Shown: positions 866-36,432 of the stretch, piece by piece
Layout of the letters: the number at the start of each line of letters is the position of its first letter
Position numbering within the stretch: position 1 is the stretch's first letter
Source of the DNA: Bacteroidota bacterium
Lineage (GTDB): Bacteria > Bacteroidota > Bacteroidia > Bacteroidales > FEN-979
Assembly (NCBI GenBank): GCA_037139855.1
Contig: JBAXFM010000001.1
Coordinates: 2,503 to 66,502, forward strand
Direction: 5' to 3'
Length of the DNA: 64,000 bases
The notes under the pieces: model-generated
The model's database searches: none
What the model was told of the DNA's origin: nothing
What the model saw: only the letters and a program-made list of their open reading frames with translations
Position numbers and translations under genes: made by a program

Positions 866-3800
866 ATGAAGATCACCCAGGATTGCATTCAACGTATTTT
901 ATCAGTCGTAAAGGTAGAAGAGGTCATATCTGACTTCTGCAAGCTCGAAAGAAGCGGGGCGAGTCTTTATACCAAGTGCCCCAAGTGCGGCAAGTCAGGC
1001 AAAGGAAAAGGGCTGATCGTGACACCGGCGCAGGGTATCTACAAGTGCTTCTCCTGCGAGTACGGTGGAACGTCACCGATCAACTTCATCATGGATATGA
1101 AAAATACCTCATATCCTGATGCAATCAAGTACCTGGCCGAAAAATACAATGTGCTGCTGGAATATGAAGAAAAGCCAAAGGGACCGCAGGTAAAGAACGG
1201 CGTGAAGGAACTTACTTTTCGCGACCGGCAGCTCGCCTCCAGCGGACTTTCGGATGCTGATCAAAAGGCCACTGTTGTCATCGATGAGAATACCCAAAAG
1301 GTGGTTGATGTTTTTGAAACCGGCACCAGGGATCAGTATGGGAAGATCGCACCAGGTGATGACATGATCATCTGGTATTACGACCTCGAGGGCAAGCCGG
1401 TCATGTTTACCAGGCCAAAAGGGAACAAGCAGGAACACCTATTCAGGATCCGGTGGCAAAATCCGGATCTGCATCATGACAAGAGCGGCCGCCCGATGAA
1501 ATATTCATCGCCATCCGGATCCGGATCCCACCTGTTCTTCCCGGAAGAGATTCGGGAAGCTTACCGCAATCGGCGCGTGATCAAAAGGCTGTTCATCCAG
1601 GAAGGGGAGAAGAAAGCCGTGAAGGCCTGCAAGCATGGCCTTACATCTGTGGGAGTGATGGGTATCCAGAACATCGGGCACAACAATAAACTGCCCTACG
1701 AGCTGCAGCTGATCGTTCAGGCATGTAAAGTCGAAGAGGTGATATTTCTGATCGATGCCGATTGGGATGCCCTGAGCAACGACCTGAAGCCGGGATCCCG
1801 GGTTGATCAGCGCCCATATTCCTTTTATTGGGCTGTACGGAACTTCCGCGATTACTTCAAAACGTTCATCAACCTGGGAATTTACCTGGAAATTTACTTT
1901 GCCTACATCCGCAAGGATGATAAGATACCGGTGTATGAGAAAGGTGTTGATGATCTGCTGGCCGGCACGCTCCGGGATAGTGAAAACGACCTGTTCAACG
2001 ACATCAAAACAGCGATCAACGAAAAGGATGGCCAGGGGAAATATATCCAGCTGAATAAGATCACCACGGTGTCGGATCTGAAGCTGCTCGAGTTCTGGAG
2101 CCTTCAGGATTCGAATTCCTTTGCCATGAAGTACAAGGAAACCCTGCAGAACCTTCCTGAATTCTACATTGGCCGGCACAAATGGAAATTCGATGAAGCC
2201 GGTAAGCTCGTGCCGGCACAGCCCCTGCAGGACGATGAACAGTTCTGGGAAAAGATCACCAAAGAGGACCGAAAAGGCAATGATTATACGCAGTATCGCT
2301 TCAGGTACCTTTACGCTTACAACTTCCTTCACCGCCGGGGATTCGGCCGCATCGAGATGGCCGGAAGGAACTATGCGCTGTGCCAGATCACAGATAAAAT
2401 AGTTCAGACGGTTGAAGCTTATCAGATCCGCGATTACATCATGGATTTCAGCAAAGCGATACTGGCCACCAATAACCGGGAGGAACTCGTTGAAGTGATG
2501 GACATGCTTTATCGTGGCGGGAAAATGTATTTCGGTCCTGATTCCCTGGGGAACGTTGATTTTGTAAAACCGGTCTTTGAATCTGCCGACAAACGGCACC
2601 AGTACCTGTTCTTTAAAAACAATTACTGGAAGATCACTTCCGACGGGGTGGATGAAAAGCCGCTGAGTGATTTGCAGAATTATGTTTGGCGCGACCGGGT
2701 GAATGATTTCGACGGTGTGTTGATGGGAAAAGAAATGATCAAAGTGAACCGCATCGACATCGATTACATCCTGGCCAACAAACTTGACCCCATGGAATAT
2801 GAGCCTGTGATGGGCCAGTTCGATGTTGAATTCTCCCCTGAGGCAATGGAGTGTCATTTTGCCCGGTTCATTCACAACACCGGTGAGTTCTTCTGGAACA
2901 AAGTGCAGCACCAGAAAACCCGTAAGAAACTGGAGAAGGATCAGCGATCCATCGAGGAACGCTATGAAACAAACCTTCACATGGTGTCGAAAATGACGGC
3001 CATCGGTTATCTGCTTCACAAATACCGTGACAAATCATGTGAAAAGGCTGTCATTGCCATGGATGGCAAACTCAGCGAGGTTGGCGAAAGCAATGGGCGC
3101 ACCGGGAAATCGATCATGGGTTTTGCCATTGGCCAGGTGGTGCCGCAATGTTACATCGGGGCAAAGTCAAAGGACCTGGAGCATGATCCGTTCCTGTTTG
3201 AAGAAGTCACCGAGAAAACAGATAACATCTTCATGGACGACGTTCGCGCCAACATCGACTTCGAATTCTTCTTCCCGATCATCACCGGCAAGCTGATGGT
3301 GAACGTGAAGGGTGTCAAGCGCTGGACCATTTCCGAGCGTGAAACCCCGAAGATATTCATCACAACAAATCATGCCATCAACGGAAGCAGCGCATCATTC
3401 AAGGACCGGCAGGCGCTGATCGCCTTCAGCGATTACTACAATGAAGAGTTTAAGCCGGTCGATGATTTCGGAATCAATTTTTTCGATGAATGGGATGACA
3501 AGCAGTGGAACCTGTTTTACAACTTCATGGCCGACTGCCTGAGGTTGTATTTCCAGGCCGGCGATATGGGATGGGGTTACAATCACTCCGGACTGATCCA
3601 GCCGCCTACCGAACGCCTTGACCAGCGCCGGTTGCGCCAGTTCATTGGTGAAGACTTCTTAACCTGGGCCGGTGAATATTTCAACGTGGAAGATCCGGAG
3701 AGCATCGACACATCCACCGGACAGAATTTGAACATCGACATCCCCAGGGCTGAGCTGTACAATAACTTTTTGGAGAAAACACCTACACAGCGGAAATTCA

Positions 3801-3976
3801 TGAACCCTTTCCGCTTCAAGAAAAAAATGATAGCCTGGTGTGAATATCACCATGCTTCATTCAATCCTCAGATCTGCGACAAATTCGGGAAACCGGGTGG
3901 TGATGACAAGCGCGGCGGGGTTGAGTATTTCACAATTGCTAACGCTAAATTTTCTAACTCAACTATTTTCCCATGA
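866..3976 (+). CDS. DNA primase fused to a P-loop (D5/VirE-type helicase-like) domain
   Basis: 1036 aa. N-terminal CHC2 zinc finger (CPKCGKSGKGKG...YKCFSCEYGG) as in DnaG primases. Toprim-like IQEGEKKAVKA ... FLIDADWD. C-terminal P-loop SNGRTGKS followed by IFMDDV (Walker-B-like). Confidence 0.85.
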   Translation: MKITQDCIQRILSVVKVEEVISDFCKLERSGASLYTKCPKCGKSGKGKGLIVTPAQGIYKCFSCEYGGTSPINFIMDMKNTSYPDAIKYLAEKYNVLLEYEEKPKGPQVKNGVKELTFRDRQLASSGLSDADQKATVVIDENTQKVVDVFETGTRDQYGKIAPGDDMIIWYYDLEGKPVMFTRPKGNKQEHLFRIRWQNPDLHHDKSGRPMKYSSPSGSGSHLFFPEEIREAYRNRRVIKRLFIQEGEKKAVKACKHGLTSVGVMGIQNIGHNNKLPYELQLIVQACKVEEVIFLIDADWDALSNDLKPGSRVDQRPYSFYWAVRNFRDYFKTFINLGIYLEIYFAYIRKDDKIPVYEKGVDDLLAGTLRDSENDLFNDIKTAINEKDGQGKYIQLNKITTVSDLKLLEFWSLQDSNSFAMKYKETLQNLPEFYIGRHKWKFDEAGKLVPAQPLQDDEQFWEKITKEDRKGNDYTQYRFRYLYAYNFLHRRGFGRIEMAGRNYALCQITDKIVQTVEAYQIRDYIMDFSKAILATNNREELVEVMDMLYRGGKMYFGPDSLGNVDFVKPVFESADKRHQYLFFKNNYWKITSDGVDEKPLSDLQNYVWRDRVNDFDGVLMGKEMIKVNRIDIDYILANKLDPMEYEPVMGQFDVEFSPEAMECHFARFIHNTGEFFWNKVQHQKTRKKLEKDQRSIEERYETNLHMVSKMTAIGYLLHKYRDKSCEKAVIAMDGKLSEVGESNGRTGKSIMGFAIGQVVPQCYIGAKSKDLEHDPFLFEEVTEKTDNIFMDDVRANIDFEFFFPIITGKLMVNVKGVKRWTISERETPKIFITTNHAINGSSASFKDRQALIAFSDYYNEEFKPVDDFGINFFDEWDDKQWNLFYNFMADCLRLYFQAGDMGWGYNHSGLIQPPTERLDQRRLRQFIGEDFLTWAGEYFNVEDPESIDTSTGQNLNIDIPRAELYNNFLEKTPTQRKFMNPFRFKKKMIAWCEYHHASFNPQICDKFGKPGGDDKRGGVEYFTIANAKFSNSTIFP

Positions 3977-4188: not shown

Positions 4189-4205
4189 CAAATACATTTT
4201 TGCCG

Positions 4206-4275
4206 AAAATGATACAAAAAATGTCAATAATGATACACAAAACGCCAATTAAGTTGCATAAAACGCCAATTAAAT
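4206..4275 (+). promoter_or_regulatory. Two pairs of direct repeats, each phased 21 bp apart, upstream of ORF 4284
   Basis: AATGATACA at 4208 and 4229. AAAACGCCAATTAA at 4239 and 4260. The 21-bp spacing is two helical turns. Lies in the 95-nt gap before ATG 4284. Confidence 0.4.
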
Positions 4276-4283
4276 AGCAAATC

Positions 4284-4793
4284 ATGAAAACAGAACTTGA
4301 GATTACCCAGGATTTATTGGAAATCATTGCTGAATGCGAATTTAGAATTCACAATGCAAGAAAGGCTATTTCAGTACTGACCGGAATAGTTTATGAAGAT
4401 GGCCCATGGAATTGGGATGAAAAAATTAAAGTTGCAAATACTGATTTGTTTCATGCGCCGGTACAAGATACGCAACTACCTGTACCCCCCCCTGTTACGA
4501 AACAGAAGGAAAAGCAGAAGAGAACGTTCGCCGAAAAGAACTGTGAAAATTGCGGTAAACCATTTATGCCAACGCATAATAAACAACGCTTCTGCAGAAA
4601 AGAGTGTAATCCGAACGTGGCAAAGAAACAACCAACAGGCAAAGAAATCATTGAAGAAATGCTCGAATTAAACCATCAACCGGTTGCTCCGGAAAAGCAT
4701 GTTGACCCGGTTGCATTTAAAGCGAAGATGGATCAGATCAGGCATGATATCCCCATCCAGCGGGAACGGCCAAATGTTACACGAGGATTTTAA
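4284..4793 (+). CDS. hypothetical protein with a zinc-ribbon-like motif (169 aa)
   Basis: CENCGKPF...x10...FCRKEC four-Cys motif flanked by Lys/Arg-rich segments. Possible nucleic-acid binding. Confidence 0.6.
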   Translation: MKTELEITQDLLEIIAECEFRIHNARKAISVLTGIVYEDGPWNWDEKIKVANTDLFHAPVQDTQLPVPPPVTKQKEKQKRTFAEKNCENCGKPFMPTHNKQRFCRKECNPNVAKKQPTGKEIIEEMLELNHQPVAPEKHVDPVAFKAKMDQIRHDIPIQRERPNVTRGF

Positions 4794-4803
4794 ACGAAAG
4801 CAA

Positions 4804-5202
4804 ATGGAAAAGGAACAGGTTAAATTAAGAATTCATGGTGTTGTGTCGGATGTGATGATTAAATTTCATTTAAGCAATAAGCATCTTCATGCTCAAGAGA
4901 TACCGCGAAATTTAGTTGTTGAGCACATGCAGTGGGTGCGTGATACGATCATCAGGGTCCTGGATAAAATCGAGGATCCGGATGATGTAAATTCAGAGCG
5001 GCCGCCGATCGGTATCATGCCCAGGAATGTGTTTGAATACATGATAAAAGATCAGCGATTTGCAGAACTTTCAAATACGATCAGCAGATTTCTTTCCTTC
5101 GGTCGGTTAATTCCCATTGCATGGCTTACAGAATACAACGAATTGATAGAATATTTGAGGTTACATAAACTCAGCGAACATGAAAATCCGGATCCCAAAT
5201 GA
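4804..5202 (+). CDS. hypothetical protein (132 aa from ATG 4804)
   Basis: The track ORF opens at 4684 but overlaps the previous gene by 110 nt. ATG 4804 (MEKEQVKLRIHG...) lies 11 nt after the upstream stop. Confidence 0.55.
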   Translation: MEKEQVKLRIHGVVSDVMIKFHLSNKHLHAQEIPRNLVVEHMQWVRDTIIRVLDKIEDPDDVNSERPPIGIMPRNVFEYMIKDQRFAELSNTISRFLSFGRLIPIAWLTEYNELIEYLRLHKLSEHENPDPK

Positions 5203-5372
5203 TAAGGAAATCCATTCTGTGGTTGACAACCTGGATGGTGAACAGGTAATGAATGTTATCTGGAAAGAAAAGGAGTCCCGTTAAAATTCACAGAGTTGCC
5301 TCCTGATACTCCATTTACGGATGATCGCACGCTCGTGGAACTTGTTTATCCTAATTCCTTATAATTTTTCAA

Positions 5373-5537
5373 ATGGAAGAGAAACCAATTATATTCAGTA
5401 CACCCATGGTCCGGGCAATCATGTTCGGACAGAAACACATGACCAGGCGATTAAGCGGATTAGAAAGAATAAACCGCCGGGCTGACGACTGGGTTGGTGA
5501 CAGCCATATTTCGCATATAATCCTATTCAATCAATAA
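5373..5537 (+). pseudogene. 54-aa ORF resembling only the N-terminus of ASCH-like phage proteins (possible gene remnant)
   Basis: MEEKPIIFSTPMVRAIMFGQKHMTRR matches from memory the N-terminal signature (P-I-L-F-S-x-P-M-V-x-A-I-x-x-G-x-K-x-x-T-R-R) of a common phage protein family that is normally over 100 aa. Here the frame stops after 54 codons. Below the track length cut-off. Confidence 0.3.
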
Positions 5538-5572
5538 CGGTTCATTTGCTATCTTTGAACAAAAATACACTC

Positions 5573-5788
5573 ATGAGTAAGACAGTTGAATTATCCAAGG
5601 CTCAAATAAGCACGATATTGTCGTGCATCAATGAGCGTGAGGCTTTATATCTCAAGGAAATTGAGGTTAACAAGGATAAAAAGGAACAGGTACTGATGGT
5701 CAAAGGCTGGAAAAAGAAGCTGATCGTTATTGAGGAGCTCCAGCGCCTGTTCGGTTATTCACGTTTATCTGTTCCCGGCAGGAAATAG
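5573..5788 (+). CDS. hypothetical protein (71 aa from ATG 5573)
   Basis: The track ORF opens at TTG 5546. The first ATG is at 5573 (MSKTVELSKAQ...). Last gene before the early-operon terminator. Confidence 0.5.
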   Translation: MSKTVELSKAQISTILSCINEREALYLKEIEVNKDKKEQVLMVKGWKKKLIVIEELQRLFGYSRLSVPGRK

Positions 5789-5858
5789 CACCGCACCATC
5801 TCCCCCAGGTTGATCGATCTCCCGCCGGTCGATGCTCAGGATCACTTCAGAAAGAACT

Positions 5859-5885
5859 AAGCCAGGCATTCGCCTGGCTTTTTAA
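5859..5885 (+). terminator. Rho-independent terminator closing the early operon
   Basis: AAGCCAGGC-attc-GCCTGGCTT perfect 9-bp stem followed by TTTAATT. Confidence 0.7.
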
Positions 5886-6116
5886 TTGGTGAAGTATGGA
5901 GCTGGGTGAGCGGCAGCGAATACAGCTCGGTACGAACTCCTTATTCATTTCTCTCCTCCGGGGTCTGTTTTCGCCCCGCCGCCCCCTTTCTTTCTGAAAA
6001 ATTATAGTGCAAAGGTACGGTATGAAAATCGCAAAGAGTTGAAGGCCTTATACATATATATATTATTTATTAATTTATCTTTTTGACAAGTATACTTATA
6101 AGAATAATAGAAAATA

Positions 6117-6306
6117 TTCGTGCTTTCGTGCGCACTAAAATTTTTAAAATGTAACGATCTGATTTTGAGATTTTATGAGGGTGTTTTTTACTGCACGAAA
6201 ATCGCACGAAAAGCACGAAAAGCACGAAAATCGGTACTACTTTTTTAAATGCATTGATACTCAAATGGTTGCAAAATGAAAGTACGAAAGCACGACTGCA
6301 CGAAAA
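6117..6306. repeat. Iteron array: nine copies of GCACGAAA(A)-type motif next to an A/T-rich tract
   Basis: Bottom strand: TTCGTGC and TTTCGTGC at 6117..6131. Top strand: GCACGAAAA at 6193, 6204, 6213 and 6222. GTACGAAA at 6282, GCACGA at 6290, GCACGAAAA at 6298. Preceded by a near-pure A/T stretch at ~6048..6116. Confidence 0.8.
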
Positions 6307-6465
6307 TATTTGGACTTTTTACCAAGTATGCCTGTCACTTCGCACAAACTTTTTTTGCTATTGGAATTCTGAGATTACTATTGGATTTTTGCTTAATAAT
6401 TCTTATATGAAGGTACCATAAACATTGACCTTTATAAAGACAACAGTCGAACTTAATTTTACTCC

Positions 6466-13051: not shown

Positions 13052-13913
13052 AGAGATCGAAAAGCTCGCGGCGGTCAACTACAGCGTGAAACAAATCGCC
13101 ATGTACCTGGATGTGGATCCCAAAGCATTCCAGAAAGAGTTCAGCAACCTTGAATCGAAGGTCCGCTATCATTATGACCGGGGGTTGCTCGTTACCCAGG
13201 CGGAACTGGACATGGCCAACCTCAAAAGGGCAAAGGATGGCAACATGACTTCCATCCAGCAGTGGAAAAAGGATGCAAATTCTCAAAAGCTTGACAACCT
13301 GAAAAAACAGGTGTTTTTCGATGAAGAGCACAATGAATATGAACAGCTGCAGGGGCTGATCGAGCGGGGAGAGACGGGAAAACTGCCTGAAAAGGTTGTA
13401 AACTTTTATGAGCAGATTGATTTCATCCGTTGCCTGTACAACAAATACGAATCGAAGAGTTTTATCATCAACGCCGTGGTTGTTCAATACCCGCGGCTGT
13501 CCAAATACCAGGCAACGCAGCTTTATTATGAAACCCTGAATTTCTTCAACCTGGATAACCAGGTGAAAGTTGAAGCCTGGGCGAATATCTATGCCGACCG
13601 GTTGGATAACATGGCCAGGATCTGTTATGAGCTGAATGACTTCGAAACCGCCCGCCGGCTGACCATGGACAGCGCCGAGCTGCGCGGTGTAGGCAAGGAT
13701 AAGCCGAACCAGGTTCCTGATGAACTGCTTGACCGCCGGCCGGTATTTTACACCATCCGGATCGAGGATATCGGGGTGTCGAAAATCAATCGCAATGATC
13801 TGGCTGCCTTCATTGATAACCTGGATATCACCGAAAGGGAAAAATCAAAAGTGAAGCGTGAAGCCATGATTGAAGATGTTCCATTTGAAATGCTGCCAGA
13901 TGAGCAAAACTAA
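13026..13913 (+). CDS. putative terminase small subunit (295 aa from ATG 13026)
   Basis: N-terminal HTH-like segment (NYSVKQIAMYLDVDPKAF). The gene overlaps the start of the large terminase. The call is mostly positional. ATG 13014 is also possible. Confidence 0.4.
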   Translation: MELTPAQYKEIEKLAAVNYSVKQIAMYLDVDPKAFQKEFSNLESKVRYHYDRGLLVTQAELDMANLKRAKDGNMTSIQQWKKDANSQKLDNLKKQVFFDEEHNEYEQLQGLIERGETGKLPEKVVNFYEQIDFIRCLYNKYESKSFIINAVVVQYPRLSKYQATQLYYETLNFFNLDNQVKVEAWANIYADRLDNMARICYELNDFETARRLTMDSAELRGVGKDKPNQVPDELLDRRPVFYTIRIEDIGVSKINRNDLAAFIDNLDITEREKSKVKREAMIEDVPFEMLPDEQN

Positions 13914-15585
13914 GATAACGACTCAGGAGGCCGATATCCGTTACTCGAATTGGATATCCACGCTGATCGATCTGATCAAGCCGGCAAATCTTTATCTCTA
14001 TGGTGGCCGTGGAACGGCAAAATCAACTGAAATACTGGCAAAAAGGACCATTGATGTGGTATATGACATGCCCAGGGCAAGTTTTGCCTTTGTATCGGAT
14101 ACTTACGTGAACCTGATGACCAACATTATTCCGGCCATTTTGACAGGATGGGAGGGGAGAATGAAATTCCTGGAGAACTATCATTTCGTGGTCGATGTGC
14201 CGCCTCCGGATCACTGGCCCAAACCCCTGGTTAAAACCTTTTCATTCAAACATACTATTTCAACCTTCAACGGTTGTAAGTTCTTTCTTACTTCTCTTGA
14301 CAGGCCATCATCGAACGCCGGGATCTCCGTAGTGCACCATTTTGGCGATGAAGCAAAGTACCTCCAGTGGGATAAATTAAGTAAGCTTTTTCCGACGCTC
14401 AGGGGAGACTATGCCCTTTATGGCCATTCCCATTACTTTATGGGTCAAACGTTCTGCAGCGACATGGCTGATCCCAGTGTGGGAGAAAGTGACTGGATGC
14501 TGCGCATGGAAAAGAACATGGACAAAGAACAGATCACCCGGATCATCCAATCTGCCATTATCCTCAATGAAATTAACCTGGAGCTTTACCAGGCTGAGCA
14601 AAAAGGTGAGGATATCAAACGCATTGACAACATCAAAAAAAATCAGGCTCGCTGGATAGAGCGCATCCGCAAGATTCGCCAGGACAGCACATTCTTCTAC
14701 ATAGTCAGTTCCTTTGCCAATGCCGATATACTTACCCTGCGATACTTCCAGAACCTGTTGGCATCATTGACATTTGAAGAGTTTAAGACTGCAGTACTGT
14801 CTATCCGTAAGACCCTGGAGAAGGGCGCCCGTTTCTATGGTGCCCTGGCAGATAAGCATTTCTACATTGATGGCTACAACTATGACTACTATGACAAGTT
14901 TGGCATACGTGACAATGTGTCTCAGACATCAGCAGGGCTGAAGTATGTACAGCATGATAAGATACTCGAGGGTGGGTTTGATGCAGGCAACATGATGAGC
15001 CTGGTAATAGGGCAGGAGCAGGGCAATCAGTATAGGGTACTCAAAGGTATGTACACGCTTACACCAGAGTGGATAAGGGAGTTAGGCGATAAGTTCATTA
15101 CATTCTTTGAACCACATAAGCGTAAGGTATTGCATCTGTACCATGACAGATCAACCAATCAGTATCGTAAGACAGGACGTGACGTTGCTACTCAACTCAA
15201 ACATGATATCGAATACAATAAGGCAGGCACACGTACTGGATGGATCGTACAGCTTATGAGTGTGGGACAGGGCAACATATCGCACTCAGATGAGTTCAAC
15301 CTGATGAACATCATGATGGGTGAGAAGGATAAGAGATTACCCAAACTGTTAATAGATAAGTTTGAGTGCAAGGAACTCAAGAGCCAGCTCGAGATCACTC
15401 CCGTTACCAAGAGCAGCAAGGGTGAGATACAGAAGGTAAAGAAAGGCGATAAGTTATCGCCATCACGATTGGCAATGGAGTCAACAAACTTCTGTGATGC
15501 GTTCAAATATCTGCTATGCAGGCACAAATGGCTTGCCATAGCCAGGCAGAAGAGGGGCCTTACCTTTGGCTCCCTTAACATGTAA
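13900..15585 (+). CDS. terL: terminase large subunit
   Basis: Walker-A-like YLYGGRGTAKST and Walker-B-like VVHHFGDEAKY. ~560 aa, typical TerL size. ATG 13900 chosen; the track ORF opens at TTG 13870 and ATG 13876 is possible. Confidence 0.85.
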   Translation: MSKTKITTQEADIRYSNWISTLIDLIKPANLYLYGGRGTAKSTEILAKRTIDVVYDMPRASFAFVSDTYVNLMTNIIPAILTGWEGRMKFLENYHFVVDVPPPDHWPKPLVKTFSFKHTISTFNGCKFFLTSLDRPSSNAGISVVHHFGDEAKYLQWDKLSKLFPTLRGDYALYGHSHYFMGQTFCSDMADPSVGESDWMLRMEKNMDKEQITRIIQSAIILNEINLELYQAEQKGEDIKRIDNIKKNQARWIERIRKIRQDSTFFYIVSSFANADILTLRYFQNLLASLTFEEFKTAVLSIRKTLEKGARFYGALADKHFYIDGYNYDYYDKFGIRDNVSQTSAGLKYVQHDKILEGGFDAGNMMSLVIGQEQGNQYRVLKGMYTLTPEWIRELGDKFITFFEPHKRKVLHLYHDRSTNQYRKTGRDVATQLKHDIEYNKAGTRTGWIVQLMSVGQGNISHSDEFNLMNIMMGEKDKRLPKLLIDKFECKELKSQLEITPVTKSSKGEIQKVKKGDKLSPSRLAMESTNFCDAFKYLLCRHKWLAIARQKRGLTFGSLNM

Positions 15586-15728
15586 CACAATCCTTATAGG
15601 CAATGCCCATATATGTGTGATTTCGTAAAGTACGAAACCACTGCATGTGTGGGATCCTCCATGCCCTTTTGTCATATATCCGCCTACCAGCGCGGGTGAA
15701 CGTGCCCCCCGGCGGCTGGGCGGGTCGT

Positions 15729-15771
15729 CCGGTTTGGCATCTTGGCTTTTGTAAAAGCCAAACCAAACCGG
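15729..15771 (+). other. 43-nt near-perfect hairpin downstream of terL
   Basis: CCGGTTTGG-catc-TTGGCTTTT-gt-AAAAGCCAA-a-CCAAACCGG (9+9 bp). No clear T-run follows. Confidence 0.6.
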
Positions 15772-15783
15772 TTAAAAAATAGA

Positions 15784-15808
15784 AAATCAGCCATTCTGTC
15801 TGATTTTT
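15784..15808 (+). terminator. Weak rho-independent terminator
   Basis: AAATCAG-ccattctgt-CTGATTT followed by TTTTAC. Confidence 0.45.
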
Positions 15809-15840
15809 ACATAAAGTTTTACTTTAATGTTGATCTCATG

Positions 15841-16152
15841 GAAAGGGAAGTTCAAATTTTGGACTTCCTTTTTCTTTGAATAACCGGCAAAGAAAAAGGA
15901 AGCGAAAAAGAAACCGAGTTTGGCCAGCGCACTACTTAATACTCGAAATTCATCAAAGTTACCTATGGGGAAAGAAGGGTAAAACTGTCAAGGGCGGCCT
16001 CCTGGAGGAACTTGCCGCCTTTCAGGTTACTTCAGATTGCATGCAATCGTGACCCACACCCCTGACATTATTTATTCCCCGCGGTGAAGCCTTACGGCAA
16101 AATTTCATTATTAACCAGCGGCCTGATAACGGCTGCATAAAACAATTGCCGT
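15841..16152 (+). promoter_or_regulatory. Structured leader element L1 upstream of the radC-like gene (paralog of L2)
   Basis: 15-bp perfect hairpin CTTCCTTTTTCTTTG(15864..15878)/CAAAGAAAAAGGAAG(15888..15902). 23-nt core GGCCAGCGCACTACTTAATACTC (15922..15944). Hairpin GGCGGC..GCCGCC (15993..16019). Palindrome GATTGCATGCAATC (16035..16048). The same order and spacing occur in L2. Confidence 0.6.
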
Positions 16153-16614
16153 ATGAAAACCATGAACTTGTTCAACTCGAGCGTTGCTGAAGTAAGCATC
16201 GTCTATCACAACACCGTTCGCCCGTCTGAGCGACAGAAAATCACCAAATCAAATGATGCCTTTGACCTTCTCAAGAGCATCTGGAATGACCAGATTGATC
16301 TTTATGAGTCGTTCTACATCCTTTTAATGAACAGGGCAAACAAAGTCCTGGGCTATCGCTGCATTTCCCAGGGAGGAGTCTCTGGGACCGTGGTGGATCC
16401 CAAAGCGATCTTCCAGGCCGCCCTGCTGGCTAATGCGTCAAACATTATCCTGGCACACAATCACCCGAGCGGAACCCTGGTTCCCTCAGAGGCCGACGAA
16501 AGAATTACAAAGAAGTTAAAATTAGCTGGTGAGTACATGGAAATACAGGTACTTGACCATCTGATCCTGGGCGATGAAAGCTTTTATTCATTTGCTGACG
16601 ACGGGAGGTTATAA
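16153..16614 (+). CDS. radC: RadC-like JAB/JAMM domain protein (153 aa)
   Basis: Intact JAMM motif HNHPSGTLVPSEAD (HxH-x7-S-xx-D). ILAHNHPSG and the C-terminal LDHLILG are typical of the RadC/DUF2466 family. Confidence 0.85.
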   Translation: MKTMNLFNSSVAEVSIVYHNTVRPSERQKITKSNDAFDLLKSIWNDQIDLYESFYILLMNRANKVLGYRCISQGGVSGTVVDPKAIFQAALLANASNIILAHNHPSGTLVPSEADERITKKLKLAGEYMEIQVLDHLILGDESFYSFADDGRL

Positions 16615-16751
16615 TGGAAGCGCTATACGAAATGTTCAGCCAGCTGCAGGATGATGTTTACTATCCTGGGTACTGCCTTGCAATGGAAACATCAGATCCT
16701 GAAAAGGTAAAATTCGAATGGGAACAGTTTTTAAAAATGTTCTCTAAATGA
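16614..16751 (+). CDS. small hypothetical ORF (45 aa) translationally coupled to the radC-like gene
   Basis: TAATG stop/start overlap with radC. MEALYEMFSQLQDDVYYPGYCLAMETSDPEKVKFEWEQFLKMFSK. Ends 5 nt before a strong terminator. Below the track length cut-off. Confidence 0.45.
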   Translation: MEALYEMFSQLQDDVYYPGYCLAMETSDPEKVKFEWEQFLKMFSK

Positions 16752-16755
16752 CAGG

Positions 16756-16784
16756 AGCCCCGGGAAAACCCGGGGCTTTTTTTA
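16756..16784 (+). terminator. Rho-independent terminator
   Basis: AGCCCCGGG-aaaa-CCCGGGGCT followed by TTTTTTTAT. Confidence 0.8.
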
Positions 16785-17103
16785 TGCTCGCAGCGGCTCG
16801 CCTTGAGGGCGGCTTTCTTTTTTGAAATCACCGCAAAGAAAGAAAGCCGGCAAAGAAAAACACGGTGGCCAGCGCACTACTTATTACTCAAATTTAGTGC
16901 AAAGTTAACCTCACGAAAATATCATCTCTCTAAACGCGGTCTCCTGACGGATCCACCGCCCGTTGGGTTCATTCATATCCTGCGGATACTGACCTGAACA
17001 TTTGTTCCAGAATTTTCATTCCGGTTATGGCAGTGGCATAAATTTTTCATTCATCAGGCGGAGCCAGATGCCTAAATAAGTCCCCAGGGCAGGGGCACAC
17101 ACA
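16785..17103 (+). promoter_or_regulatory. Structured leader element L2 upstream of the 136-aa ORF (paralog of L1)
   Basis: Hairpin GGCTTTCTTTTTTG(16811..16824)/CAAAGAAAGAAAGCC(16834..16848). Core GGCCAGCGCACTACTTATTACTC (16867..16889), 22/23 identical to L1. Hairpin GCGGT..ACCGC (16936..16959). Hairpin TATCC-tgc-GGATA (16976..16988). Confidence 0.6.
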
Positions 17104-17514
17104 ATGACAAAAGTAAGTTCAGCAGTTCAGAAACCCACCAACGGCGGGGCAAGTGCATCAGAAAAGACCGGTCTAACAGTGATCAGGCCGGTTCAGTCTC
17201 CCAACTTCACGATTCCGGAAGAGAAAAACCCGGTACCGGAAGTCAAAAAGGAGTTAACCCTCACCGAAAAAATTCAAAAGGTCGAAAACCTGCAGCTCAT
17301 CGTCGAGAAAAGGACGAAACTGGTGCAAACACGAAGCGAAATTGAAAGGTTTCAAACCGCTTCCAATGATTTCAACTGCAGCCTGCGGCTGAATGATTCA
17401 GACGGAAATGTCTTCACCACCAGTTTCACCCCTGGAATCAAGAAGGTAATTGAGTTCCTTAAGTCAGCTTTCGATGCAAGCATCAGCGAAGTTGAACAGA
17501 AAATCAACTTCTAA
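17104..17514 (+). CDS. hypothetical protein (136 aa)
   Basis: Disordered-looking N-terminus followed by a coiled-coil-like segment. Bounded by leader L2 and its own terminator. Confidence 0.6.
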   Translation: MTKVSSAVQKPTNGGASASEKTGLTVIRPVQSPNFTIPEEKNPVPEVKKELTLTEKIQKVENLQLIVEKRTKLVQTRSEIERFQTASNDFNCSLRLNDSDGNVFTTSFTPGIKKVIEFLKSAFDASISEVEQKINF

Positions 17515-17525
17515 GCTTCTTAAAG

Positions 17526-17556
17526 GGAGTCCCGGGAAACCGGGACTCCTTTTTTT
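17526..17556 (+). terminator. Rho-independent terminator
   Basis: GGAGTCCCGG-gaaa-CCGGGACTCC perfect 10-bp stem followed by TTTTTTT. Confidence 0.8.
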
Positions 17557-17621
17557 CTGCTCGTATCCCCACCGGTGGGTGTGTCCTTTAAAAAAACCTG
17601 CTCAAAAGATATGTTTGCTCC

Positions 17622-17912
17622 ATGATCACCGAGGAGACCATAGATCTGTACGAAGCCATCCGGGAAATGAGGAAATTGTCACAGCAGGACAAGTCCTTTT
17701 CTTTCGTTCATGCCACGCTGAACCGGGATAAGGATACCAGCGAAGGAATCCGGTACGTGAAAAGTGCACACCTCAGGCCTGCGGCCAAAGGGGATGATCT
17801 GGTAAACGCGGATGACAAGATTTTCTATTTCGATGAAGAGATTGAGAAACCAAGGGTTTGCTGGCAATTGCTGATCATGTATTTCGATGATAAACGGGTA
17901 ATTCTTAATTGA
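17622..17912 (+). CDS. hypothetical protein (96 aa)
   Basis: Clean ATG. Ends 6 nt before the next gene. No recognisable motif. Confidence 0.55.
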   Translation: MITEETIDLYEAIREMRKLSQQDKSFSFVHATLNRDKDTSEGIRYVKSAHLRPAAKGDDLVNADDKIFYFDEEIEKPRVCWQLLIMYFDDKRVILN

Positions 17913-17918
17913 TGCTGC

Positions 17919-19334
17919 ATGACTGAGGTAAAAAAATCGGACGTACAACTCGTCCGGGAAGGAAATAAAGCTTTCGGGATTACCCCGGTAGGCGTTTATG
18001 CGTTCGACGTGGCCGGATCCTTCAAGATGGCAAGCCCTTCGGTACTGCCATTCTATACGAATGTCAGGCAATTGATCCCTGTCAAAATCGGTGAGTTCTC
18101 AATCGTGGCCAATGGACAGGAAAACAACTACCCCGACGAACTGCGAATCATCCTGGATGAGAACAACCTCACTCCGGAGATCCTGAACAAACAGGCTCAG
18201 TTGCTCTATGGCCAGGGACCGGCGCTGTATAAACTGAATTTCGAGAATGGGCGCCGGGTGAAGTACTGGCTCACCGATCCTGAAGTTCAGGCATGGCTCG
18301 ATTCGTGGGATTACGAAGATTACCTGCTGAAGTGTTGCATCGAGTTTCGGACCATGAACGGGCATTTTTCCAAGTTCTACCGCAACAAAGGCTTCCGGAT
18401 CGGTGAAAAACCACAAATCGCGAAGCTCGAGCATGTTTCTTCCATGTTTGCCCGCCTGGAATGGCCGGATGACAATAACCAGATCAATAACATCATCGTT
18501 GGCAATTTTCGCCAGCCATGGCAACTCGGATTGAGGAAATACCCGGTTCTGGACCCATCGCGGCCTTTTGCCAACCCGGTATCGATGCGCTATTCAAATC
18601 TGTACTCATTTGCCCTGGACAATGAGTACTCCCGTTCCCCGATACACGGATCATTGAACTGGATCAAACTTTCGTCATCCATTCCGAAGCTTCTGTCGAG
18701 TTTTAACGACAATTCTATGGCCATCAAGTACCATATTGAAGTGCCGGCGATATACTGGGAAAAGTTAAGGGAACAGATGATCCTGCAATCGGAGGAGTCG
18801 AATGGGATATTCACTGAAAAGTTGTTCAAAAAGGCCCAGGATGATGTGATGGAAAGCTTTTCCATTGCCCTGGCCGGTAATGACAAGGTGGGGAAGTTTG
18901 TCAGCACTACCACGGTTTTTGACGAATTGGGTAACCAATATGTCGGATGGAAGATCACCCCGCTGGATCAGAAGGTAAAAGATTTCATCGATGCTCAGAT
19001 TAACATTGCCAACGAGGCATTGTTCCAGACTACCTCAGGGCTTGGGGTACACCCGGCCCTGAGCAACCTGAGCAAGGATGGAAACCTGCCCAGCGGTTCC
19101 GAGCAGCTTTACGCGTTCAAACTTTACCTGGCCACCGGGGTGGATATCCCTGAAGGCATCGTGATGAAAGACATCAACATCGCGATCAATGCCAACTTCC
19201 CCGGGCGTGGTCTTCGCCTGGGCTTCTACCATGATGTTTTGCTTACCGAATCGCAAACCAGTCCTGCAGACCGGATCAAGAACCAGGATTCAGGAACCCA
19301 GACAGGAGACAAAAAAACAACTCAAAACCCGTAA
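17919..19334 (+). CDS. putative portal protein (471 aa)
   Basis: The size and its position as the first large morphogenesis gene after terminase suggest a portal. No motif-level support is visible. Confidence 0.4.
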   Translation: MTEVKKSDVQLVREGNKAFGITPVGVYAFDVAGSFKMASPSVLPFYTNVRQLIPVKIGEFSIVANGQENNYPDELRIILDENNLTPEILNKQAQLLYGQGPALYKLNFENGRRVKYWLTDPEVQAWLDSWDYEDYLLKCCIEFRTMNGHFSKFYRNKGFRIGEKPQIAKLEHVSSMFARLEWPDDNNQINNIIVGNFRQPWQLGLRKYPVLDPSRPFANPVSMRYSNLYSFALDNEYSRSPIHGSLNWIKLSSSIPKLLSSFNDNSMAIKYHIEVPAIYWEKLREQMILQSEESNGIFTEKLFKKAQDDVMESFSIALAGNDKVGKFVSTTTVFDELGNQYVGWKITPLDQKVKDFIDAQINIANEALFQTTSGLGVHPALSNLSKDGNLPSGSEQLYAFKLYLATGVDIPEGIVMKDINIAINANFPGRGLRLGFYHDVLLTESQTSPADRIKNQDSGTQTGDKKTTQNP

Positions 19335-27700: not shown

Positions 27701-27745
27701 CCGGTTGTCCTTTAAAAAAAATCCATACTCCGCTAAGTTTGTCCC

Positions 27746-34795: not shown

Positions 34796-35053
34796 ATGTC
34801 GCGCATCAATTTTGAAGAGATCTTCGCATCTTTTCGCACCAAGTTCCCTCCAGTTCAATCTTTAAAGGACGCATCGCTGAAGTTCACCACTTCGGAGATC
34901 AATGAAATGATGGCCGAATTCATTCCCGACCTGGAGTGGCCCCGTGAGGGGATCACCCGGTTTATGATTGACCAGGGTTATAAATATGAGCCGGTAGAGG
35001 TAAATGAACGGGTCCGTTATTTCTGGCTAATCGGGCAAGGTCCGGAAAATTAG
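34796..35053 (+). CDS. hypothetical protein (85 aa from ATG 34796; 99 aa from ATG 34754)
   Basis: Protein-like sequence (MSRINFEEIFASFRTKF...). Converges on and overlaps the integrase 3' end by 92 nt, so its reality is uncertain. Confidence 0.4.
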   Translation: MSRINFEEIFASFRTKFPPVQSLKDASLKFTTSEINEMMAEFIPDLEWPREGITRFMIDQGYKYEPVEVNERVRYFWLIGQGPEN

Positions 35054-36152
35054 TAGTCAGTACCGCCGATGGCCGTACATTAAACTTGTCCAGGTAAACC
35101 TGAGTTTCCTCCAGGCTCGAGTGGCGCAGCTGCAGCTGCAGATCCCTTACGTTGATTCCGGCCTCGATGGCCATGCCTACACCAGTGTGCTTCAACGAAT
35201 AAATGTTTTTCTCAATTCCGTAGTGATCCGCAAACTCCCGCCATGCTTCCGCGATCCTGGTTGGAGCATATTCCTTTGGGCCCCGCTTCTGGTTTTTTGC
35301 AAAGACAAAGAAATTTCCCGGGAACTTCAGATCCAGCTTTGCCAGGATCGGCACCAGGGCATCCGGTATCTGCACGACCTGTTGCTTTTTATTCTTTGAA
35401 GTTGCGCCCAGGGTAATGATTGTTCGTTGCCTCAGGTTGATATGAGAAACCCTCATGCGCACGATCTCCTGCGGCCGGATAAAGCAATAGAAGATCAGGC
35501 AGGCGCAAACGTACAAATCGTAATTCCATTCCGGTAGGTACTGCTGCATGATCATAAGCTCGTCAACATTAAATGCAATAATCGAGGCATCCTGTTTCGG
35601 GAACCGTTCAATATTTTCGAAGGGATTCACCAGGATATATTCGCGCTTTACAAGGACTTTGAAGATGGTCTTCATGGCGGTCACCCGGTTGTTATAGGTC
35701 CTGTTCCCGTTTCCGAGCACTGATTTGGTATAATCCATGAACTCCTGGGCGTGGGTGTAATTGAAATCATCCACCGGCAGGTTGATTAATTTTTTGAATT
35801 CAAGCCACTCCTTGAATTTCTTCACCATGCTGTCGTAGGTATGGGTTGTTCTTTTACGGCACGAGGTGTTCTTCAGGGAGAGCACAAAATCGATGGCCAC
35901 GGAAATACTGGTGTATTTTCTCTCCAGGAAGGCAAATGGATTGTATCCCTGGCGTAATTTCTTATTGAGGACCTTGATCATCTCATGGCCTTTGTCCCGG
36001 CGTCCGGAACAAGTAAGAATTTTTGCAGGAACCCAATGCTGAAACCGGCGATATTTGCCGGTCTCCGGGGATCTGAATGAGTAGTAAACAAACCAGCGTT
36101 TTGTGATATCGCCGCCGGCGTCGAATAGTTTTGCGGTTTTAAAATTTTCCAT
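34962..36152 (-). CDS. int: tyrosine-type site-specific integrase
   Basis: 396 aa from ATG 36152 (MENFKTAKLFDAGGDITKRWFVYYSF...); the track ORF opens 60 nt upstream. Recombinase boxes are readable: CFIRPQE (Arg I), TSKNKKQQVV (Lys), YSLKHTG (box II variant) and LRHSSLEETQVYL (His/Tyr). Confidence 0.9.
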   Translation of the reverse strand: MENFKTAKLFDAGGDITKRWFVYYSFRSPETGKYRRFQHWVPAKILTCSGRRDKGHEMIKVLNKKLRQGYNPFAFLERKYTSISVAIDFVLSLKNTSCRKRTTHTYDSMVKKFKEWLEFKKLINLPVDDFNYTHAQEFMDYTKSVLGNGNRTYNNRVTAMKTIFKVLVKREYILVNPFENIERFPKQDASIIAFNVDELMIMQQYLPEWNYDLYVCACLIFYCFIRPQEIVRMRVSHINLRQRTIITLGATSKNKKQQVVQIPDALVPILAKLDLKFPGNFFVFAKNQKRGPKEYAPTRIAEAWREFADHYGIEKNIYSLKHTGVGMAIEAGINVRDLQLQLRHSSLEETQVYLDKFNVRPSAVLTTNFPDLARLARNNGPVHLPLPAHIYNPGQS

Positions 36153-36208
36153 TTCTTTTTTTGTTTTCCGACCTCGCCAGGTTAAAAAACATCGGTGAAA
36201 TGACCGCA

Positions 36209-36432
36209 GCATTTTGTTTCAAAATGTTTCAATTTTAATCACTGAAACTCTGAAACCCTTGATATTGTTGAGAACTGTAATCTTTGTAGCGGGGACAGGA
36301 CTAAATCCCAAATAACCCCCAATTAAATATCAAGTTGTTAGCTGCTTTTTCACTGTGTTTTTAAGTGCATTTTGAGGCATTTTGTTTCAGTTTGTGTTTC
36401 GGTTTTAATGGCCGTGTCCTTTGATATTATTG
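36209..36432. promoter_or_regulatory. Repeat-rich int upstream region: candidate attP arm sites and/or int promoter-operator
   Basis: ~60-bp imperfect direct repeat, with both copies reading GCATTTTGTTTCA...TTTTAAT...TTGATATTnTTG (36209..36270 and 36377..36432). GTTTCA at 36216 and 36226 faces TGAAAC at 36243 and 36251. GTTTCA/GTTTCG at 36384 and 36396. Confidence 0.4.

Follow-up and report, generated by a model that had tools for sequence, protein, structure and literature searches.

What fills an unusually empty junction between two structural genes of a phage, and how are the small genes in it expressed? The junction in question lies in a 64,000-nt stretch of Bacteroidota DNA (contig JBAXFM010000001.1 of assembly GCA_037139855.1; hereafter the window), between a large terminase homologue (terL) and a portal homologue. 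An earlier note, made from the letters alone, had described positions 15586-17918 as an accessory island of three mini-cassettes, two of them headed by leaders termed L1 and L2, and had likened the island to morons and anti-defence islands. The end of terL at 15585, the open reading frames (ORFs), two terminators and the portal start at 17919 are all located where the note had put them, and gaps of 567, 352 and 107 nt leave about 1 kb of the island non-coding. This emptiness is indeed unusual, as the median gap in the genome is ~ 30 nt (greedy ORF set) and comparable stretches are found only at 5203-6465 and in the flanks of the integrase gene. We read the segment 15586-17560, with roughly an even chance of being right, as an anti-restriction-type module at a terL-portal hot spot that is expressed through a structured sense-strand 5' leader. 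The distinctive component is the leader itself, which represents a structured family of ~ 300 nt that has apparently not been described previously.

Sequence, distribution and structure of the leader family

The first question is whether L1 and L2 are ordinary untranslated regions. Both leaders are present, but they are not generic: L1 (15838..16152, plus strand, type A) and L2 (16782..17103, plus strand, type B) are two homologous copies of one conserved ~ 300-nt element. They align over ~ 300 nt and share an identical 24-mer core, for which the chance expectation is 0, and the invariant core occurs twice per genome copy; the 38,747-bp circular genome fills the window 1.65 times, with the leader core and all ORFs repeating at +38,747. 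Public collections were scanned with the pattern TGGCCASCGCAC-N16-34-CAAAGKTA and then with an nhmmer profile constructed from 11 copies; the nhmmer E-values are 1.2e-76 for L1 and 8.8e-87 for L2. In total, at least 187 leader copies (at least 152 of them distinct) in at least 91 loci were confirmed by nhmmer, and these totals are lower bounds covering only the metagenome matches listed, the family being larger than counted. Confirmed matches named by taxon belong to metagenome-assembled genomes (MAGs) of Bacteroidales, Bacteroidota or Prolixibacteraceae, and the rest are metagenome or IMG/VR contigs; pattern matches in other taxa were false positives, which nhmmer did not confirm. The island and an ArdC-type leader had no blastn match in 50,697 deposited phage genomes (INPHARED) or in 72,556 plasmid records (PLSDB). 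Rfam searches of the whole window at gathering thresholds returned no match, and cmscan of 15500-18000 at E <= 10 returned terminator-like look-alikes only.

Two close relatives, with portals 83-85% identical to that of the window, have the same arrangement. At least 36 of the 91 loci also contain homologues of terL or the portal, some with only 22-25% identity to the proteins of the window, so that the leader outlasts the structural proteins in conservation; it is far better conserved than the proteins that surround it.

Another important question is whether a conserved structure accompanies the conserved sequence. The limits and helices given here are based on pair counts and, for L1, also on alignments. 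In both leaders, a hairpin with a T-rich and an A-rich arm and covarying outer pairs (H1; 15857-15909 in L1, 16810-16849 in L2) is followed by an A-rich tract and then by the invariant TGGCCAGCGCAC (15921-15932 and 16866-16877); CAAAGTTA lies farther downstream (15954-15961 and 16900-16907). A left arm (CRAAATT, CAAAG, TTACC and a G/A-rich run) pairs with a right arm (a T-rich run with CCCC at its end, GGTGA and AAATTTY). The long-range helices of L1 are 15945-15950/16101-16106, 15960-15963/16084-16087 and 15967-15973/16073-16079, and those of L2 are 16906-16909/17024-17027 and 16913-16919/17013-17019. A junction helix, Px (15990-15994/16059-16063 in L1, 16932-16936/16999-17003 in L2), encloses Pa (15995-16017 and 16937-16958), Pb (16018-16026 and 16959-16967) and Pc (16032-16052 and 16973-16992). 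In L1, the hairpin Pe occupies 16089-16098, and in L2, the hairpin Pg (CCCC-AGGGCA-GGGG, 17082-17095) ends 8 nt before the ATG. The element is thus one long branched stem-loop with a multi-helix junction at its apex.

The structure was derived manually and tested on an alignment of 43 sequences (A4). With 34 pairs, 83.0% of cells pair compared with 74.0% in shuffled alignments, and the covariation is 0.270 compared with 0.137 (0/500). The three long-range helices were revealed by a later covariation scan, and for the structure of 42 pairs the values are 86.2% versus 76.2% of cells and 0.292 versus 0.130 (0/500 shuffles), while all slid controls remain at or below 0.103. For Px, Pa, Pb and Pc, the paired cells amount to 92-98%, with multiple changes on both sides, and Px, Pa, Pb and Pg each have 3-4 pairs that changed on both sides; Px, for example, occurs as GGG/CCC, GAG/CUC, GUG/CAC, ACA/UGU and GUA/UAC. 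Among the long-range pairings, pair 31-245 of CRAAATT/AAATTTY alternates between GC (17) and AU (12), pair 51-218 of TTAMC/GKTRA is CG in 30, AU in 7 and GC in 5 cases, and pair 57-212, in the helix formed by the purine-rich and T-rich runs, occurs as four pair types. The hairpin Pg (NNNN-AGGGCA-NNNN), 8-12 nt upstream of the ATG, is paired in all cells (100%) and contains 3 covarying pairs, and the leader structure reaches the start codon. What is found is a conserved fold with compensatory changes at a fixed site 5' of a defined gene set, as expected of a cis-regulatory leader.

Several other readings of the leader sequence were tried and rejected. The leader ORFs of 58 aa (15876-16052) and 64 aa (16803-16997) are not coding, as their indels are not multiples of three and the changes are compensatory. 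The hammerhead-like 'CUGAUGA' is the loop of a variable hairpin, the sigma-54-like or ECF-like reading of TGGCCAGCGCAC...TCGAAA is contradicted by a spacing that varies from 13 to 16 nt, and a Frpo stem formed by CAAAGTTA and TAAAACTG is missing from type-B leaders. As a separate observation, an H1-like hairpin with T-rich and A-rich arms, together with CAAAAAAGAAAC, is tandemly duplicated upstream of the TGGCCAGCGCAC core at positions 800-960 and 6020-6135 of the distant relative L017, and tandem units of this type are seen in some relatives.

Genes behind the leaders and the gain and loss of cassettes

Which genes do the leaders precede? The association was counted on 134 ORFs downstream of listed leaders, and the downstream ORF starts within a few nucleotides of the leader 3' end. 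RadC was found behind 34 leaders (with the JAMM motif intact in 31 of the 34), full-length ArdC, composed of ArdcN and a zincin MPTase (MPTase-PolyVal), behind 30, an acidic protein of ~ 56 aa (p56; median net charge -7) behind another 30, the 136-aa family (p136) behind 15 and ArdC-N alone behind nine. Among the loci listed, arrays contain 2-5 leaders per locus, all co-oriented, in one of two orders: p56, RadC, ~ 4.7 kb including a methyltransferase-like gene, ArdC and p136, or RadC, p56, ArdC-N and p136. The p136 cassette is always the last leader-headed one, directly before the portal block. The picture of random morons is therefore not borne out; the cassettes form a recurrent module with a conserved order. 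Between the RadC and ArdC cassettes of the distant relative L017, an ORF of 589 aa (4200-5969) has a weak match to MmeI-type methyltransferases (E 1.5e-5, below the cut-off), which fits the anti-restriction theme.

In the window, the first cassette gene (16153..16614, plus strand) encodes a RadC-like protein of 153 aa that consists of the JAB domain only (PF04002, E 2.9e-39, 134.2 bits against a cut-off of 22.1; phrog_10276, E 2.7e-35). Its metal-binding JAMM motif (HxHx7SxxD) is intact (HNHPSGTLVPSEAD), and, as the protein lacks the N-terminal HhH domain, the NCBIfam RadC match does not reach the cut-off. The RadC stop is overlapped by the start of a gene for a small acidic protein of 45 aa with a net charge of -5 (16614..16751, plus strand). 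This protein has no match in Pfam, PHROG or NCBIfam and belongs to the ~ 56-aa 'YYPG[YF]' family, that is, the 30-member p56 family. In BLASTP, it matches a 56-aa member (E 1e-12) that is headed by a separate leader, as the family is in other phages.

The second cassette contains the gene for the 136-aa protein (17104..17514, plus strand), a member of an uncharacterised family with more than 600 homologues, which carry no informative names and a few stray labels. AlphaFold2 predicts 47 disordered N-terminal residues followed by a helix, a beta-hairpin and a helix, with a mean predicted local distance difference test score of 68.6 and values mostly of 78-92 for residues 50-136. Searches of Pfam, PHROGs, NCBIfam and PDB profiles gave no informative match, and Foldseek found no matching fold in PDB and BFVD at E <= 0.001. 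The 3' arm of a further leader helix, Pf, contains an ATG, which in the window opens a 3-codon upstream ORF (ATGCCTAAATAA, 17053-17064) and in many homologues (e.g., L007, 1350-1388) is in frame with the main ORF, giving annotated versions of 148 aa. These starts are probably mis-called, as the N-terminus would cross the covarying Pg hairpin.

With respect to the anti-defence content proposed in the earlier note, the gene repertoire is of the proposed type: in the window, a RadC JAB protein whose JAMM motif is intact and a small acidic protein, and in relatives, also ArdC, ArdC-N and a methyltransferase-like gene. The activity of these products, however, stays at the level of prediction, and even for RadC anti-restriction activity is considered unproven (PMC5512222).

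The presence/absence alignment called for in the earlier note revealed cassette polymorphism. One relative (IMGVR_UViG_3300009502_002955, L006) has three leader-headed cassettes, and the additional one, which encodes an ArdC-N protein of 176 aa, sits exactly between two leaders. L2 of the window is a chimera, in which the first ~ 190 nt match the second leader of L006 and the 3' end matches its third leader. It follows from this chimeric structure that the ArdC-N cassette was gained or lost by recombination between leaders. More generally, recombination between such long repeats would add or remove cassettes, which illustrates how long regulatory repeats drive the gain and loss of cassettes at a structural-gene junction.

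Could the leaders then be primarily DNA recombination sites, attC-like or simply homologous repeats, that serve cassette shuffling? Arrays in which elements and ORFs alternate are known for the DUF1874 motif and attC (PMC5737381), and the exact insertion between two leaders and the chimeric L2 agree with this possibility. Nevertheless, we consider it very improbable: unlike attC, the leader combines high sequence conservation with a fixed start-codon junction, the order of cassettes is conserved across phages, no integrase is located in or next to the arrays (the sole tyrosine recombinase lies 17 kb away on the other strand), and ordinary homologous recombination accounts for the chimera.

The junction was also found to vary between relatives outside the leader-bearing loci, as the earlier note had anticipated. 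In BT-TP2, it spans ~ 4.3 kb with 10 small genes; in laban6-1, it spans ~ 3.6 kb with a methyltransferase gene, an ArdC-N-like gene and SymE, on the opposite strand; and in Porphyromonas phages, it is reduced to ~ 0.55 kb. Neither a repeat search nor nhmmer detected leader-like repeats in the terL-portal hot spots of BT-TP2, laban6-1 and a further locus (L009). The junction is a variable accessory hot spot across the phage lineage.

Strand and mode of action of the leader

These data raise a key question: does the leader act as RNA or as DNA? RNA motifs and motifs of single-stranded DNA (ssDNA) are hard to separate bioinformatically (Weinberg et al., PMC5737381), and thermodynamic folding of either strand alone did not discriminate between them (z from -1.8 to -2.9). 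In an alignment-free wobble test, leaders were folded with G-U pairs forbidden, and 1x1 mismatches were counted. The sense strand yielded 28 GU versus 10 AC mismatches, the antisense strand 8 versus 28 and shuffled sequences 50 versus 91, corresponding to a ~ 5-fold enrichment of sense-strand G-U over the base-composition expectation. Together with a structure that reaches the start codon, this bias favours a sense-strand RNA leader, as far as can be judged from the sequences, and cis-regulation at the RNA level appears to be the most likely mechanism.

The module would then consist of one cassette with L1, RadC, the 45-aa acidic protein and a terminator and another with L2, the 136-aa protein and a terminator. 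Each leader would form the 5' part of its cassette mRNA and control translation initiation, mRNA stability or both. Bacteroidota do without Shine-Dalgarno recognition and need an open A/U-rich region 5' of the start codon, and in the leader the A/U-rich stretch at this site would be locked in the long-range helix. The terminators would insulate the cassettes from the structural operon, which would restart at a promoter box at 17610. One conserved leader that heads every gene of a module with RadC, ArdC and small acidic proteins, and that recurs across phages with only distantly similar terminase and portal proteins, points to a dedicated device for anti-restriction control.

Several observations weigh against this interpretation. 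In the best-aligned core helices of 143 copies (2,806 cells), there are 2,680 Watson-Crick pairs, 18 GU and 37 AC; G-U is no commoner than A-C, which is unusual for RNA. The consensus promoter of the Bacteroidetes sigma-A factor has a -7 box, TAnnTTTG, and 42 representative leaders show no plus-strand copy of it in the 90 nt that precede H1; a canonical promoter of its own thus did not come to light for the cassettes, although a non-canonical one is conceivable. Moreover, the leaders of the p136 and ArdC-N types start ~ 25 nt after a strong terminator. A scan with the sigma-70 consensus likewise did not exceed the number of sites expected by chance. Read on the antisense (template) strand, the invariant CAAAGTTA matches the host -7 box exactly, and the RNA-leader model leaves this unexplained. 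Finally, the anti-restriction role of the RadC, 45-aa and 136-aa proteins is a predicted one.

The template-strand box leads to a different possibility. Frpo and ssi elements are reportedly ssDNA promoters, a concept ascribed to Masai and Arai (1997). Frpo elements are located in plasmid leading regions, upstream of anti-restriction and establishment genes (PMC11541004, PMC9849209). If the leaders were Frpo/ssi-like promoters or priming signals, the folded template strand would present the host -7 box, and transcription would take place only while the DNA is single-stranded. Plasmid leading regions contain the same gene set (ArdC, RadC and a methyltransferase-like gene; PMC11541004), and Frpo1/2 match the leader in size (~ 300 nt), copy number and co-orientation and are noted for the same liability to recombination between copies (PMC9849209). 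The leader is one long branched stem-loop, and in the template-strand box TAACTTTG, located at the base of the covarying long stem, TTA is paired in a long-range helix while CAAAG remains unpaired opposite Pe, resembling a pre-melted -7 region; the almost purely Watson-Crick covariation of the core, with AC at 37 versus GU at 18, points in the same direction. On the other hand, terminase, portal and tape-measure genes mark the carrier as a tailed phage, and phages of this type inject double-stranded DNA. Moreover, the unbiased wobble count favours the sense rather than the template strand, no -33 element at a conserved spacing can be read from the A4 alignment, folding continues down to the start codon, and the 72,556 plasmid records contain no blastn match. 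On balance, we regard a Frpo-like role as improbable. If true, it would be the first outside conjugative plasmids and would imply a single-stranded stage in the life cycle of a siphophage.

The same box could alternatively belong to a gene on the minus strand. The left third of the leader would then be an antisense small-RNA gene, running from the minus-strand box TAACTTTG through the complement of TGGCCAGCGCAC and H1; the small RNA would end at the upstream bidirectional terminator, and the leader would be a divergent promoter region. In favour of this model, CAAAGTTA hardly varies, its changes falling mainly on one of the two 'n's in TAnnTTTG; terminator-like hairpins readable on the minus strand are located 120-170 nt to the left, at 16777-16756 and ~ 15812-15783. 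However, their minus-strand T tails are weak, a conserved -33 element is again lacking, and the TTA of the box pairs with downstream sequence in a long-range helix that covaries and is thereby tied to the sense fold. The mismatches in H1, a part of the proposed small RNA, also lean to sense-strand wobble (15 versus 8). Such a gene thus seems quite doubtful, and so, to the same degree, does a divergent promoter region with a bidirectional terminator. A second minus-strand TAnnTTTG (TAAATTTG) is present in L2 at 16889-16896, 11 nt from the conserved box.

For the leader in general, one may ask what it would respond to. With a small chance of being correct, it could be a counter-defence switch, that is, either a riboswitch-like or protein-sensing RNA that unlocks the translation of RadC, ArdC, p56 and p136 at DNA entry or a Frpo-type promoter active on ssDNA only. 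Counter-defence genes have to be switched on in time, but little is known about their timing in Bacteroidota phages, and the phylum has unusual promoters and no Shine-Dalgarno use. In practical terms, the combination of TGGCCAGCGCAC, a gap and CAAAGTTA provides a sequence handle that can be used to find new candidate anti-defence genes, which would be any genes located behind a leader, such as those of the 136-aa and ~ 56-aa families.

The junction, its phage and comparison with known systems

Where does the module begin and end? On the left, it follows the large terminase homologue of 571 aa (13870..15585, plus strand), and on the right, the portal homologue of 471 aa (17919..19334, plus strand) serves as the anchor. 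The earlier assignment of these two genes is supported by homologues annotated accordingly in BT-TP2, Porphyromonas phages and Cellulophaga Ingeline phages, but terL has no match among Pfam, PHROG and PDB sequences. It contains a Walker-A-like motif, GGRGTAKST, and is 41% identical to the BT-TP2 'terminase', 30% identical to the Porphyromonas phage 'terminase LSU' and 45% identical to the laban6-1 neighbour. The portal homologue matches phrog_22277 (E 2.9e-77) and, in tblastn, 43 phage records, many of which are annotated as portal; it has no match among PDB sequences.

Between terL and L1, a structured spacer (15586..15837, plus strand) lies within a ~ 78%-identical stretch common to the window and L006. 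Its RNA minimum free energy is -96.2 kcal/mol (z = -5.66 relative to shuffles), and it contains a series of hairpins, including an AT-rich bidirectional terminator-like one at ~ 15783-15812; the spacer could be a packaging or regulatory signal. It folds into four hairpins, one of which is a GC-rich pair at 15678-15770.

The first cassette ends with an intrinsic terminator (16753..16787, plus strand; hairpin 16753-16780) that has a 12-bp stem with 8 GC pairs and a T run and is followed by the conserved TTTTTTTATGCTCGC, a motif that is also located 3' of the terminators preceding p136- and ArdC-N-type leaders in relatives. The terminator of the second cassette (17522..17560, plus strand; hairpin 17522-17553), with a 14-bp stem, 8 GC pairs and a T run, forms the right boundary of the module. 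In many loci, including those of distant relatives, the motif TTTTTTTATGCTCG(C) occurs 3' of terminators before p136- and ArdC-N-type leaders (16781-16795 in the window; 5967-5981 and 6860-6874 in L006), and a related motif, TTTTTTTCTGCTCG, comes after the terminator at 17553.

The third cassette of the earlier note, a 96-aa ORF (17622..17912, plus strand), is better regarded as a core gene. It matches phrog_26140, its homologues in BT-TP2 (E 8e-17) and laban6-1 (E 2e-7) immediately precede the portal gene, and it adjoins the portal gene in 13 leader-bearing loci. It is preceded by a match to the Bacteroidota -7 box (TATGTTTG, 17610..17617, plus strand), which lies 5 nt before its ATG and is kept in L006 and L007. 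This box is likely to be the site where the structural operon restarts, in the geometry of a leaderless mRNA. Because the 96-aa gene is a core gene with its own -7 box, the accessory module ends near 17560 and comprises two cassettes. A second -7 box, at 27734-27741, is likewise located 5 nt before an ATG (27746, a 521-aa gene), which suggests leaderless mRNAs for both genes.

The position of the module next to the portal gene raises the question of whether its products are early or late proteins. In phages and conjugative elements, ArdC-N, MPTase and RadC recur as domains of early invasion, and for phage proteins that contain them and are encoded near virion genes, packaging and injection have been predicted (Iyer et al. 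2017, PMC5512222). The island proteins may correspondingly be late effectors that are packaged in the virion and injected, as solo-domain counterparts of polyvalent proteins, with the leaders serving late expression. Since the module looks like a split, solo-domain form of the polyvalent-protein loci described beside portal and MuF genes, whose products are predicted to enter the cell with the virion DNA, late expression directed to the virion has to be taken seriously as an alternative to early expression of the moron type. The genes are co-oriented with the structural genes between terL and portal, the p136 cassette invariably adjoins the portal block, and no canonical early promoter was found. 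However, the strong terminators around each cassette and the separate promoter-like box of the structural operon at 17610 suggest that the module is regulated apart from the late operon; there is no MuF or portal fusion, and related phages whose portals belong to the same family lack the module. We therefore consider packaged effectors to be a real possibility, albeit on the whole an unlikely one.

The carrier is a temperate Bacteroidota siphophage, with the corresponding gene set of tyrosine integrase, primase, S49 protease, a tape-measure-sized ORF of 1,243 aa and the terL and portal homologues. The integrase gene (34962-36212, minus strand) is of the typical phage type and the only one in the genome, and the DnaG-type primase is encoded at 866-3976. 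A search for tRNA and tmRNA genes found none. The exact 136-aa protein is also on record from a contig of 77,585 bp in a Bacteroidota MAG; at approximately twice the length of the phage genome, this contig is probably a concatemeric assembly. The second ORF-poor stretch, 5203-6465 (~ 1.26 kb, no long ORFs), is located upstream of the capsid/protease block and contains TAnnTTTG boxes on the plus and minus strands (5550, 5560 and 6010), a terminator-like inverted repeat (5844-5895) and short direct repeats, with no Rfam match.

How does the module compare with known systems? Like morons and anti-defence islands, it is made of terminator-ended units between conserved late genes, with variable content of the counter-defence type. 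Its cassettes differ in that they share one long leader, follow a conserved order and have no canonical promoter that was found, and in these respects they look more like a regulon-type module than like independent insertions. With polyvalent proteins, the module shares the repertoire of ArdC-N, zincin MPTase, RadC JAB and methyltransferase and the site beside portal and virion genes, whereas here the domains are encoded by separate small genes with their own leader and terminator rather than by one giant fusion. The DUF1874 motif and attC are similar as structured elements in consecutive intergenic regions with single ORFs between them (PMC5737381), but the leader differs from them in its strong sequence conservation, its direct junction with the start codon and the lack of an integron integrase in its vicinity.

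Further comparisons concern elements beside the same types of genes. The radC motif (RF01754) and STAXI are structured motifs that accompany radC, anti-restriction, SSB and integrase genes in mobile DNA, and the authors who described STAXI raised the same ambiguity between RNA and ssDNA (Weinberg et al. 2010, PMC2864571). The leader resembles them as a conserved structured non-coding element next to radC and anti-restriction genes; it differs in being much larger (~ 300 nt), in its branched long stem, in its arrays of 2-5 copies and in having no Rfam match, and while the radC motif is proteobacterial (PMC2864571), the leader is known only from Bacteroidota phages. Frpo and ssi elements are also stem-loops present as several similar, co-oriented and recombining copies directly 5' of anti-restriction or establishment genes, but the leader is carried by a tailed double-stranded DNA phage and not by a conjugative element, has a wobble bias on the sense strand, contains a -7 box with no -33 element and has no plasmid match. 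Belonging to no tested Rfam family, the leader would be a functional analogue of the radC and STAXI motifs and of Frpo, and it offers a concrete test case for the question of RNA versus ssDNA that all of these elements pose.

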